Shown here one piece after another: positions 35,316 to 39,448 of a DNA stretch of 43,415 bases. Where the stretch lies: contig JANLXT010000247.1 in the NCBI GenBank assembly GCA_031365225.1, positions 1-43,415 on the forward strand, given 5' to 3'. Source of the DNA: a candidate division FCPU426 bacterium. Lineage in GTDB: Bacteria > Oederibacteriota > JAJYGY01 > DAIDJD01. The first letter of the stretch is position 1. The number at the start of each line of letters is the position of its first letter. Both the position numbers and the translations under genes were made by a program. The notes below the pieces were generated by a model. It was given only the letters and a program-made list of their open reading frames with translations. It had not been told where the DNA came from and did not search any database.

Positions 35316-36894
<1,579 letters not shown>

Positions 36895-36979
36895 TTAAGT
36901 TGCGTACTCATTTCCACTCCTTGTCCGTCTCGCAGAACGGCCCTTAAAGGGTGGTACTATTCACTGTCGATGGGATGAA

Positions 36980-37007
36980 TATAACAGGGGGTGGGTGGGG
37001 GAGTCAA
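36980..37007 (-). promoter_or_regulatory. Sigma70-like promoter of the pyr operon (TTGACT-N17-TTATAT)
   Basis: Minus-strand cTTGACTcccccacccaccccctgTTATATtcatcc, about 145 nt upstream of pyrR. Confidence 0.5.
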
Positions 37008-37034: not shown

Positions 37035-37466
37035 CTACTTTTCAGGCGTCAGAGCCTGGCTAAACCATTGTCGATTCGAGAGGATGCTGCCTGGCGGAGC
37101 CTGTCGAGTTACATAAATAAAACCTGCACCGAGTAGCAAATAGTTAACCAAGAAGACCAGGCCCGCTAGCAACAACCAATATCTAAAACCGGCTTTATAG
37201 AGGCCTTTAAGGTACCTGTCCAGAATCTCCGAAATACAAAATACGGTCAAAAAGTTTCCTGCAACCATCAATAAAATCTTTACCCAGTTTTGAATCTCTC
37301 CTTCGAAATTCCTCGGCAAGATTACGCTGGCAATAGCAAGAGTACCAATTCCTGATCCACCAGCAAGCCAAAATAATGCGTTCAGGATTTCTCCGGGCCA
37401 AATCAATACGACACCTAGCGCCGTTATCACAGAATACAGAATGGCATAGGTGATCCTCTTTTTCAT
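37035..37466 (-). CDS. Small integral membrane protein (4 predicted TM helices), in low-GC island; start at MKKRITYAIL
   Basis: Hydrophobic stretches YAILYSVITALGVVLIW, FWLAGGSGIGTLAIASVIL, ILLMVAGNFLTVFCI, WLLLAGLVFLVNYLLLGAGFIY. GGAGA SD. Local GC is clearly lower than the flanks. Confidence 0.5.
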   Translation of the reverse strand: MKKRITYAILYSVITALGVVLIWPGEILNALFWLAGGSGIGTLAIASVILPRNFEGEIQNWVKILLMVAGNFLTVFCISEILDRYLKGLYKAGFRYWLLLAGLVFLVNYLLLGAGFIYVTRQAPPGSILSNRQWFSQALTPEK

Positions 37467-37494
37467 ATATTCTCCAATTGGGGCGAATTCAACT

Positions 37495-37581
37495 CGCCTG
37501 CGCCTGCCCTTCGTGGCCCGGGCTTCCTGAGATTTCCATCCGCCGGGCACCTCAGGGCAGGCTTTCCATCCACTGGGGAGT
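37495..37581. repeat. Left copy (IR-A) of ~85-bp GC-rich imperfect inverted repeat flanking the GIY-YIG gene; internally self-complementary (GCCTGCCCT...AGGGCAGGC)
   Basis: gcctgcccttcgtggcccgggct...ccgggcacctcagggcaggctttcc is about 85% identical to the reverse complement of 37895..37985. Confidence 0.75.
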
Positions 37582-37860
37582 TCAAGTTTTATTGGGCCTG
37601 CCTGCACGCCGGGTGGCTAGCTGCTTTAGATGGCTGATGTTGCCGGCGATGAGAGCATCTTTCTTGGCGCGGCTCCAGCCCTTCCAGCGCTTCTCGGTGG
37701 CCAGGGCTTCCTGGCGCGTCTCAAAAGCCTGCTTGAAGACCACTTTGGCGTCACTGCCCTTGAGCTTTTGATGGGCCCTGGTACGCCTATCCAGTTTCCC
37801 TGTAGACCCAATATACAGGCGCTCATCAGCATACTGAAGTATGTAGGTGAAGTACTTCAA
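37582..37860 (-). CDS. GIY-YIG nuclease family protein (small stand-alone type, UPF0213/YhbQ-like)
   Basis: MKYFTYILQYADERLYIGSTGKLDRRTRAHQ contains GIY(...)YIG plus the conserved Arg and His. 92 aa. Confidence 0.8.
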   Translation of the reverse strand: MKYFTYILQYADERLYIGSTGKLDRRTRAHQKLKGSDAKVVFKQAFETRQEALATEKRWKGWSRAKKDALIAGNISHLKQLATRRAGRPNKT

Positions 37861-37894
37861 AGCTCCCTCACACCAGATTCAACAAATCCCCAGC

Positions 37895-37985
37895 TCTCAG
37901 GGAGCGCCGAAAGCCTGCCCTGAGGTGCCCGGTGCGTGGATGGATCGGGGAGCCCGGGCCACGAAGGGCAGGCGTGAACGAGGAA
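37895..37985. repeat. Right copy (IR-B) of the inverted repeat flanking the GIY-YIG gene
   Basis: Reverse complement reads acgcctgcccttcgtggcccgggctccccgatccatccacgcaccgggcacctcagggcaggctttcg. Confidence 0.75.
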
Positions 37986-38119
37986 CCAGATGTGTTCACT
38001 CAATCAACATAATCGCAGGCCCGAAAAAACCGCGCTTTCCTCGAGCCGTTTTAACCAAAGAATCACCGGAAGTCACGACCACATATTTAGTTGGCATACG
38101 AAATCTTGAAAGTTTGATT

Positions 38120-38178
38120 AGAAAAAACTCTTTTGGCAGCTCCGCTGCAATCCCCTTCAAAAGAGCTGCCAATTTTTG
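38120..38178. terminator. Bidirectional terminator-like hairpin in the low-GC island
   Basis: aaaaaactcTTTTGGCAGCTC-(20 nt)-GAGCTGCCAAtttttg: a 10-bp stem flanked by A- and T-tracts, directly after the stop of 38180..38386. Confidence 0.55.
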
Positions 38179-38179
38179 T

Positions 38180-38386
38180 TCACTCCATAATAATAAGGCT
38201 CAGCATGATGGCCCAACCAACTAAAAACTGAGCCCCTGCTCCCCTCACCCAAAAACAAGAAATCAGTACAGCTGTGATCATTGAGCCGAAAATATAGGCG
38301 TAATCCAATAGCGACATGTTATTTGCGTTTTCAATTCGCACCCAAAGATCATCTGAAAATTGATCTGGTTTTTTAATAACTATCAT
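38180..38386 (-). CDS. Small hypothetical membrane protein (68 aa, 2 TM), low GC
   Basis: Perfect AGGAGG SD 4 nt before the ATG at 38386 (MIVIKKPDQF...). Two hydrophobic helices (YIFGSMITAVLISCFWV, FLVGWAIMLSLIIM). Confidence 0.4.
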   Translation of the reverse strand: MIVIKKPDQFSDDLWVRIENANNMSLLDYAYIFGSMITAVLISCFWVRGAGAQFLVGWAIMLSLIIME

Positions 38387-38443
38387 CGTGCCTCCTGCTT
38401 TAATTTCATAAAACACCACCACGCCTATTGAGATTTGTTAATT

Positions 38444-39448
38444 CTACTTGATCGGCCTCACGCTCAATTCCACCTCTTGCGCAGCCAAAGAGAAAGCCCA
38501 AATTTCTTCTGTAGGTAAAGTCAGCTCGCCCTTCACTTCCCCACCCAGATCTAAGATCAAAGCCCCCTGGCAGCGCTCTAGCCTCAGCCTGGTCCATTTG
38601 CCGGGTCGCCAGCCGAGGGGAGTGTTGGGTTTACCGAGCTTGGCTTTGTCAGGGCTGATCAAGAGCAGGCCAGATCCATCTGGCTGGGGGACCAATGAAA
38701 GCATCAGGGGGATGGCACCGGTTGAGCCGGGTTTTAGCTCGGCTTCCCAGGCTTGGCCGTCTTTAAGCGCGCCCAGCATTTGGGTGCGCGCGAGCTTCTT
38801 GCCCATGACCGATAGCAGGATGGCGCGCTGACGCGCTGACGCGGGCCAAGATTTGACGCGGGTTTTGGCGCAGGTCAGAGGACTTGGCGCAGAGCTGGCA
38901 TCGGTGCTTTGCGCCTGCCCAACTTTCACCACAGGTGTCTTTTGAGGTGGAGAATTTGACGCGGGCGCCGAATTTGGGTCGATCGTGTAGACACGTATGC
39001 CGCTCACCACAAAATCATCAGCGATGCCGACACCTGCGTCGATCTCTAGTCGGTGGGCGCCAGGACCGAGCGTGATGGGTGCCACCCAGGCCCAGCCTTT
39101 GGCATTGTGCTCGTGGCGCAGCGGACCGAGGGAACGGTTATCCAAACTGACCAGAGGCTCAGCCAGGTGCTCGCGATCCAGACCGAAGACTTTTTTGATC
39201 TCAATCCGCACGAACGCCGCACTCGTGAGCGTGAAGGGCCAGCTATGGGTACGCCCCGCCCACGGCTCCCGTAAGACTTGGACCGACGACGCGGTGTCAG
39301 GCGCTTCACTGCCATCCCCCAATCGCCAGCGCGCGTCATCTGACACAAAGTTCTTGGCGTGAAGCGTCACGCCAAGTCCAAGCATTAAACCAAGCAGGCT
39401 AGCGCGAACCACGGCCTGCCTTGGATTGCTTCTGAAGTTCCCGCTCAA
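38444..39448 (-). CDS. Secreted hypothetical protein (signal peptide; no recognizable family)
   Basis: N-terminal LLGLMLGLGVTLHA signal. 334 aa. High GC consistent with host genes. The track start overlaps the upstream gene by 50 nt, so the true start may be internal. Confidence 0.55.
   Translation of the reverse strand: MSGNFRSNPRQAVVRASLLGLMLGLGVTLHAKNFVSDDARWRLGDGSEAPDTASSVQVLREPWAGRTHSWPFTLTSAAFVRIEIKKVFGLDREHLAEPLVSLDNRSLGPLRHEHNAKGWAWVAPITLGPGAHRLEIDAGVGIADDFVVSGIRVYTIDPNSAPASNSPPQKTPVVKVGQAQSTDASSAPSPLTCAKTRVKSWPASARQRAILLSVMGKKLARTQMLGALKDGQAWEAELKPGSTGAIPLMLSLVPQPDGSGLLLISPDKAKLGKPNTPLGWRPGKWTRLRLERCQGALILDLGGEVKGELTLPTEEIWAFSLAAQEVELSVRPIK

Follow-up and report, generated by a model that had tools for sequence, protein, structure and literature searches.

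What is a gene for a 92-amino-acid (aa) GIY-YIG nuclease doing between two inverted copies of one and the same hairpin? The arrangement lies in a contig of a candidate division FCPU426 bacterium (JANLXT010000247.1, assembly GCA_031365225.1), which we analyzed over its positions 1 to 43,415; this stretch of 43,415 nucleotides (nt) is referred to below as the window. We consider it probable, at roughly 65%, that the gene and its hairpins form a resident, vertically inherited cassette in which a small GIY-YIG nuclease gene is accompanied by two copies of its cognate hairpin DNA repeat. The evidence comes from the anatomy of the locus, from 83 loci carrying homologous genes, and from a relative that has kept the hairpin in the same place.

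Two copies of a two-tier hairpin bracket the gene

The three parts of the cassette are the following.

37501 to 37566, forward sense on the minus strand: hairpin arm, copy A, 15 nt past the stop codon of the GIY-YIG gene
37582 to 37860, minus strand: GIY-YIG open reading frame (ORF), 92 aa, TTG start codon with a GGGAG run just upstream
37909 to 37974, forward sense on the plus strand: hairpin arm, copy B, 48 nt before the start codon of the GIY-YIG gene

A repeat search of the window returned the arms as an inverted pair of 66 nt each, 86% complementary and separated by 342 nt, and found within each arm an internal 20-nt inverted repeat of its own. This bears out the sequence-only reading of the locus, an earlier annotation that had described inverted repeats bracketing the ORF, but not the length of about 85 bp that it gave them, as the similarity of the inner flanks past 66 nt is at chance level (227/2000 shuffles). 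That reading also had the ORF filling the space between the repeats almost exactly; the ORF does lie between the arms, with 15 nt to spare after its stop codon and 48 nt before its start. In a gapped alignment of copies A and B, the arm ends of 23 nt and 24 nt are identical and all differences fall in the apical loop. The two copies are inverted relative to one another, and both forward readings are directed away from the gene.

Read in the forward sense, both arms have the form GAAA-GCCTGCCCT-GAGGT-GCCCGG-(21-nt loop)-CCGGGC-CACGA-AGGGCAGGC. When folded as DNA, all four arm strands adopted the same two-tier hairpin with an asymmetric internal loop, in agreement with the self-complementarity that had been noticed in each copy. 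The outer stem is 9 bp long (GCCTGCCCT/AGGGCAGGC) and the inner stem 6 bp (GCCCGG/CCGGGC). Energies range from -16.6 to -19.3 kcal/mol, with z about -2.4 to -2.6 and 2 to 4 of 200 shuffles equally stable; RNA folding over the longer coordinates of the sequence-only reading gave z of only -1.0 to -2.2.

Could two GC-rich palindromes have come to surround an unrelated small gene by coincidence or by a local duplication? The presence of only two copies in the window would suit such an account, but a degenerate half-arm pattern run over the 43,415 nt gave four matches, which are the four half-arms, where 0.29 were expected, and none of 100 shuffles reached four. The stems are moreover conserved in the relative described below, and the wider survey disposes of the idea almost completely.

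Hairpins of one class accompany homologous genes in many phyla

We surveyed 83 homologue loci, made up of the first three examined and 80 taken from named genomes via an alignment of homologues. In each of the first three, repeats were found around the gene (3/3). For the full set, the 300 nt on the upstream side of each gene were compared with the 300 nt on its downstream side for their best inverted match, with a score of at least 14 counted as positive, and pseudo-genes shifted by 1.4 to 3 kb inside the same loci served as controls. Flanking inverted repeats were present in 54 of the 83 homologue loci, compared to 2 of 396 shifted controls.

The hairpins share a design in which a stem of 5 to 10 bp closes a loop that starts with GAG and ends with CGA. 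Of the 83 loci, 67 have a stem-GAG...CGA-stem hairpin of this kind no more than 300 nt from the gene, and 31 have such hairpins on both sides of it; the density of the pattern is 3.05/kb near the gene, 0.14/kb farther off, and 0.06/kb in shuffled sequence. The commonest form, with 104 copies, has the 11-nt loop GAGCYTGTCGA and is preceded by a conserved, unpaired 5' CCGTTC, while some copies have a second hairpin inserted between GAGG and (C)TCGA. Hairpin doublets occur on each side of the gene in many of the loci. The hairpins also have a preferred sense, with upstream copies more often forward (49) than reversed (29) and downstream copies more often reversed (53) than forward (21). The hairpin family is found in Alpha-, Beta-, Gamma-, and Deltaproteobacteria, Chloroflexota, Bacteroidota, Patescibacteria, and others. 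An association in 54 to 67 of 83 independent loci, compared to about 0.5% of controls, effectively refutes a chance origin, which we regard as extremely improbable.

To avoid circularity in judging the stems, copies were picked on the loop GAGCYTGTCGA alone. Across the 120 distinct copies so collected, Watson-Crick pairing prevails at the four closing positions (91-96% of copies), and every one of these positions is filled by several pair types. In the alignment of this set, 80% of cells are paired, compared to 58% after shuffling and 34-44% in slid controls, and the covariation score is 0.559 compared to 0.187, a value attained by 0 of 500 shuffles.

The loop motif is also dispersed away from the gene, at 0.056/kb compared to about 0.001/kb expected by chance, often as inverted doublets that resemble the REPINs built from repetitive extragenic palindromic (REP) sequences. 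One suggestion of the sequence-only reading, a REP-like repeat family flanking a UPF0213-type gene, was thereby essentially right: hairpins of the same class flank homologues in many phyla and are dispersed as well. In Sphingomonadales and other genomes, REPIN-like inverted GAGCYTGTCGA doublets lie 1 to 3.5 kb from the GIY-YIG gene, at the following positions.

L011, 2577 to 2650: inverted GAGCYTGTCGA doublet
L015, 443 to 512: inverted GAGCYTGTCGA doublet
L068, 5290 to 5360: inverted GAGCYTGTCGA doublet
L072, 1542 to 1622: inverted GAGCYTGTCGA doublet
L074, 4511 to 4560: inverted GAGCYTGTCGA doublet

Hairpin sequences may also have entered protein annotations. Tails such as VRPELVEG, LRQAQPER, and FDRLRTGG, found at the C termini of several database homologues (among P0013, P0015, P0021, P0029, and P0031), look like read-through translation of flanking hairpins and would then be annotation artefacts. 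In the window itself, the appearance of one peptide in two spurious ORFs on opposite strands, pointed out in the sequence-only reading, is real and is a product of the inverted repeat.

A different account would place the hairpins at the level of RNA or transcription, as terminators, insulators, or mRNA-stabilising stem-loops that do not interact directly with the nuclease. Both copies do lie in would-be untranslated regions, TTT comes after each hairpin when it is read in the reverse sense (in L093, TTTTT or a T-rich sequence), and small terminator-like hairpins stand just inside each arm. However, an intrinsic-terminator scan did not report the main hairpins, which have only TTT after them, and the 5 terminator-like sites in the region are not clearly above the 2.1 ± 1.4 found in shuffles. 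Rfam searches gave nothing relevant at the gathering threshold for the window and eight related loci, or at E ≤ 1 for the cassette. Above all, the loop is conserved between very distant phyla, on either side of the gene and in either orientation, and in doublets far from GIY-YIG genes, a pattern that would not be expected of gene-specific terminators. We therefore hold an RNA-level role to be unlikely.

The small terminator-like hairpins with T-rich tails are at 37560-37582 (+) and 37887-37903 (-), the latter between copy B and the start codon of the GIY-YIG gene. Both contain CTGGGGA, and their similarity to one another is at chance level.

The window arms are long-stem members of the class

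The window arms fit the GAG...CGA class, their stem being 9 bp and their loop 43 nt long. Their closest counterparts are at loci whose proteins are also near. Locus L005, which carries the closest homologue (P0004, 48% identity), has GAGGTGCCCGG...CCGGGCCTCGA, and the element that it has in common with the window arms can be written GAGGTGCCCGG...CCGGGCC[AT]CGA; its outer stem, AGACC/GGTCT, is entirely unlike that of the window. Loci L093 and L091 encode P0011 and P0005, two proteins with the shortened middle segment of the window protein, and their hairpins, of 55-60 nt, have the GAAA flank and the GAGG...CGA frame seen in the window. In L093, the outer stems differ by compensatory changes (GCCTGGCCT/AGGCCAGGC and GCCAGCCCT/AGGGCTGGC), while in L091 the frame is kept and the outer stem is weakly paired. 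The window, L093, and L091 also have the same mirrored arrangement, with a reversed copy upstream of the gene and a forward copy downstream.

In an alignment of these long hairpins, 90.6% of cells are paired, compared to 77% after shuffling, and double changes occur in 8 of 16 pairs (0 of 500 shuffles); the structure used for this count was itself derived from the window sequence. At L005, a unit of approximately 30 nt (GGTCTCCGAGGGGCCACATCCAAAACCA-like) is repeated in tandem arrays at 460-700 and 1195-1290, which flank the gene in addition to the hairpins.

Searches for further long hairpins returned candidates that we rejected. A strict two-stem hairpin pattern had no match over the representative genome contigs. 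Its sole match among metagenome contigs, at L002 (1148-1208), is a perfect 61-nt palindrome at the very end of the contig and inside coding sequence, and is probably an assembly fold-back artefact or chance. Two viral-contig matches to the inner stem were also set aside; both fall in one helicase-like coding region, with neither an outer stem nor a GIY-YIG gene. Six-frame translations of the hairpins matched nothing in the protein database at E ≤ 10, a null result that is uninformative because intergenic copies are rarely translated.

The nuclease is a bare GIY-YIG domain

The 92-aa protein matches the GIY-YIG family of Pfam (PF01541) over residues 2-66 with an E value of 8.6e-11. Its catalytic residues are intact: in an alignment of 44 sequences, Y6, Y16, G18, R26, H30, and E56 occupy invariant or nearly invariant columns. 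An AlphaFold2 model (pLDDT 90.3) has one compact domain with the beta-beta-alpha-beta-alpha GIY-YIG fold. A Foldseek search with the model gave as best solved matches the UPF0213 structures 1zg2 and 1ywl (E 1.3e-4), followed by Slx1, and a profile of the clade likewise matched 1zg2 (E 1.7e-22) and 1ywl (E 6.7e-18). The window protein scores 41.6 bits with the UPF0213 protein BH0048 and 60-77 bits with members of its own clade, and by sequence the clade stands between UPF0213 and the Ssn proteins of NTS type introduced below.

No close relative of the protein was found. HMMER returned 1,207 relatives at E ≤ 0.001, the best of them, the protein itself apart, only 48% identical; in another protein search the best such match was 40% identical, with no close paralogue. 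An exact protein look-up led only to DNA identical to the window (L001). NCBIfam, PADLOC, and PHROGs gave no match for the nuclease, and tblastn against plasmids gave four weak ones.

UPF0213 (BH0048, 1zg2; EF2693, 1ywl; the YhbQ group, cd10456) thus provides the closest solved structures and sequences, of the same size and fold; the window clade has a distinct WSRAKK motif. To our knowledge, no hairpin association has been reported for UPF0213.

SsnA/NTS is the closest known system

The closest known system is clearly SsnA/NTS (Ssn family, CDD cd10448). SsnA of Neisseria meningitidis is a 94-aa single-domain GIY-YIG protein, with a catalytic set of Y6, Y17, and the metal-binding E64, that binds the NTS hairpin in one strand only, provided the DNA is single-stranded, and its cut falls a few nucleotides upstream (Chenal et al., Nat Commun 2025, PMC11893778). 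Its homologues are typically flanked by the repeat ("NTS-ssnA-NTS"), an arrangement that the authors liken to insertion sequence (IS) elements and to REP sequences with their RAYT transposases (PMC11893778). Homologues were defined there by blastp E < 1e-10 with at least 75% coverage to N. meningitidis SsnA, and the published motif of the gene flanks, SRM, has the form HGTCWYN(0-2)YYVSBRHN(0-5)WNVSBRGN(0-2)RNCYNB (PMC11893778). Further marks of the family are a single GIY-YIG domain in a protein of less than 150 aa and cd10448 (GIY-YIG_unchar_3) as top CDD match.

The window cassette resembles this system in its single-domain protein of about 92-94 aa with a Tyr/Tyr/Glu catalytic set; in its oriented inverted hairpin repeats, which bracket the gene as repeat-gene-repeat; in the dispersal of repeats of the same class elsewhere in genomes that carry the system (here, in related genomes); and in the asymmetric conserved flank that gives the hairpin a direction. 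The two differ in detail. The spacing between the tyrosines is 10 in the window protein, as in UPF0213, and 11 in SsnA and the NTS-flanked proteins; the signature is ...ER.IKGWSRAKKEALI.G. in the window clade and ...REK.IKKW.RAWKL.LIE..NP.WRDL in the NTS-flanked proteins; and the hairpin has 61 nt, two stems, and a GAGG...CGA internal loop, compared to about 28 nt for NTS.

As a positive control, viral contigs were scanned for the NTS core, which yielded four loci with a small GIY-YIG ORF beside NTS. The SRM pattern detected the NTS copies beside all four of these genes, in a repeat-gene-repeat geometry like that of the window. The four encoded proteins have the Tyr-Tyr-Glu spacing of SsnA (11 and 58 residues) and the signature RNGTLY...KKW.RAWKL.LIE..NP.WRDL, score 104-152 bits among themselves, and, being flanked by exact NTS copies, served as a proxy for the SsnA homology criterion. 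These NTS-type Ssn cassettes, on contigs that IMG/VR classes as viral, are listed here.

L148, 7785 to 8165: NTS-type Ssn cassette
L173, 2948 to 3378: NTS-type Ssn cassette
L095, 2723 to 3130: NTS-type Ssn cassette
L171, 3660 to 4040: NTS-type Ssn cassette

NTS copies were present on at least 120 viral contigs, and in some cases formed arrays of as many as 13.

Several observations count against reading the window cassette as a nuclease gene with its cognate DNA hairpins. The SRM pattern has no match at the cassette, and its one match in the window, at 743, is at the level of chance. The window protein is only distantly related to the NTS-flanked proteins, scoring 31-33 bits with three of the four (E 0.3-3.5 at 1e9 residues). 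Within the 43-kb window there are only the two flanking copies, with no fragment elsewhere or at the contig ends. Relative to the gene, the window hairpins are oriented as a mirror image of what is commonest across the wider clade. Lastly, covariation cannot separate a DNA hairpin from an RNA hairpin.

The fourth NTS-flanked protein gave no match with the window protein at E ≤ 10; the hairpin orientation is mirrored relative to the NTS cassette L148 as well; and the SRM pattern matches within 500 nt of the gene in 0 of the 83 homologue loci. The window cassette, then, has all the architectural features of an Ssn cassette but, at the level of sequence, neither its SRM nor, as judged from the proxy proteins, a close homologue of SsnA. 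Because the SRM is absent and the protein scores only 31-33 bits with NTS-flanked Ssn proteins, the cassette is not a strict member of Ssn/NTS, and the protein, to judge from its sequence, belongs to a different subfamily. Comparison of sequences also suggests that the clade is at least as close to UPF0213 as to SsnA.

We tentatively suggest, at somewhat less than even odds, that a second partnership exists beside SsnA/NTS, in which a separate small GIY-YIG clade has co-evolved with its own hairpin family and of which the window represents a long-stem, mirrored sub-type. A system of this kind has been known since 2025, but this protein clade and hairpin class escape the published motif, and we found no description of them in the literature. 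Searches for GIY-YIG proteins with RAYT or REPIN, or for cd10448 and UPF0213, led to the Ssn paper as the only one to describe such a system, and the loop sequence occurs in full-text literature only in unrelated primers.

Among other systems, REP/REPIN-RAYT comes nearest in organization: it too has a single-copy nuclease-type gene flanked by inverted short hairpin repeats and apparently inherited vertically, with dispersed inverted doublets that the relatives of the window cassette also show. The enzyme here is a GIY-YIG protein, unlike the HUH/Y1 tyrosine transposase of RAYT, and REP-type dispersal is seen in relatives (at the density given above), whereas the 43-kb contig of the window holds no extra copy.

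The cassette has probably been kept in place beside pyrR

The cassette is a neighbour of pyrR in the pyr operon and thus has a chromosomal context. The closest PyrR in the database (98% aa identity) is encoded on L086, a contig of 1,282 nt that shares 85% identity with the window over the pyrR-pyrB DNA. L086 starts in a hairpin that matches copy A at 95% identity and agrees with it in orientation and in the side of pyrR on which it lies; only about 55 nt separate this hairpin from the conserved pyrR promoter (TTGACT/TATATT in the window, 37007-36978). The two hairpins differ at three positions, all in the apical loop, and the 40 stem and internal-loop positions are unchanged. Between hairpin and pyrR, L086 lacks the 143-aa low-GC ORF that the window has at 37035-37466. 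An orthologous hairpin with unchanged stems beside pyrR argues that the cassette was inherited and is not a recent insertion. It appears, from these sequences, to be older than the split from the L086 organism and to have held its position, with constraint acting on the stems.

Small hydrophobic ORFs occupy low-GC DNA (0.41-0.44) on both sides of the cassette.

37035 to 37466, minus strand: small hydrophobic ORF, 143 aa
37996 to 38172, minus strand: small hydrophobic ORF, 58 aa
38180 to 38422, minus strand: small hydrophobic ORF, 68/80 aa

Pfam, PADLOC, and PHROGs gave no match for them, and NCBIfam only a far sub-threshold one for the 80-aa ORF. The sequence-only reading had seen a GC-rich cassette embedded in lower-GC DNA and had taken it for a nested insertion. 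The surroundings are indeed low in GC (0.444 and 0.412 in the two flanks), but the cassette (0.599; ORF, 0.552) is close to the window as a whole (0.574), so that the flanks are the outliers. As it is the 143-aa ORF, and not the hairpin, that is missing at the orthologous position in L086, the low-GC DNA is the variable part and looks like a later acquisition beside the hairpins, which argues against the nested insertion.

In more distant relatives, whose PyrR is 68-69% identical, the Wzy_C/TPR gene and pyrR are separated by a glycoside hydrolase gene, with neither a GIY-YIG gene nor a hairpin. The interval is variable: 37035-39448 in the window corresponds to 5053-6459 in L087 and 4495-6830 in L088, where the gene is of glycoside hydrolase family 1, and the window has instead a 334-aa ORF with no family match, the low-GC ORFs, and the cassette. 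On the pyrR side, the minus strand of the window at 36851-37007 has the promoter-like TTGACT and TATATT, 18 nt apart, and two terminator-like hairpins before pyrR, all conserved in L086; this site looks like the usual PyrR-controlled attenuator leader of a pyr operon.

These comparisons bear on whether the cassette is an active mobile element, be it IS-like, IS200/IS605-like, or a homing cassette, that recently inserted into a low-GC island. Its architecture is IS-like, as the Ssn authors remark of NTS-ssnA-NTS (PMC11893778), and the variability of the Wzy_C/TPR-pyrR interval, the dispersal of the hairpin class in related genomes, and the exact coincidence of a contig end with the hairpin in L086, of a kind that occurs at repeated sequences, would all agree with mobility. 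Yet a relative 15% diverged has the orthologous hairpin on the same side of pyrR and is missing the low-GC ORF instead. No target-site duplication was found at the outer arm borders, where the flanks are no more alike than shuffles, and the 43 kb hold no further copy of the hairpin. The protein has no close paralogue, the best others being 40% and 48% identical, and it consists of the catalytic domain alone, with no partner of the HUH, DDE, or serine recombinase kind encoded nearby. A mobile element is accordingly a quite unlikely explanation.

The particular forms of mobility fare no better. The MITE-like (miniature inverted-repeat transposable element) cassette of the sequence-only reading, and a classical IS or MITE in general, conflict with the lack of an outer direct repeat, with flanks at shuffle level, and with the absence of extra copies in the window. 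IS200/IS605 elements share with the cassette subterminal hairpins, which in their case are recognised on single-stranded DNA, and the lack of a target-site duplication. They have distinct left and right ends, whereas the ends here are inverted copies of one hairpin, and no TnpA (HUH) or TnpB gene is present. A homing-type selfish element, also raised by that reading, is unlikely, since the 92-aa protein comprises just the catalytic domain and has none for DNA binding; an endonuclease of the I-TevI type was rejected on the grounds of this single domain, the absence of a PHROG match, and the chromosomal pyr-operon context.

A proposed function and its implications

No rival explains the association of gene and hairpin across phyla as well as a resident cassette of nuclease gene and cognate repeat. 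The cassette would be part of a widespread pairing between one clade of GIY-YIG proteins of about 90-130 aa and one oriented hairpin class. The repeat would fold once the DNA becomes single-stranded, as in replication, uptake, conjugation, or transcription bubbles, and the nuclease would recognise just one of the strands, by the hairpin and its asymmetric loop or flank, and cut nearby. The GAG...CGA frame could form tandem G.A pairs and then a G-C pair, which would extend the helix. The copies flanking the gene may be the ancestral unit, like the REP sequences around a RAYT gene, and the dispersed copies in other genomes would be further substrates. We infer this binding, its specificity for single-stranded DNA, the cleavage, and the biological role only by analogy with SsnA.

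The Ssn enzymes are the first known example of site-specific nucleases whose cleavage is confined to single-stranded DNA, and any pair of enzyme and hairpin is a potential tool with a specificity of its own; the cassette and the 83 related loci point to further pairs that the published search pattern does not detect. The analysis also explains a very common source of spurious repeat-encoded peptides beside such genes. In the source genome, the cassette is a small and apparently stable feature, not an active transposon. For the family, it suggests a function for small GIY-YIG/UPF0213-like proteins, which have been listed as "function unknown" since their structures were solved in 2005; if the proposed partnership is real, hairpin-directed cleavage of single-stranded DNA may be the general function of the entire small GIY-YIG (COG2827/UPF0213-like) group.

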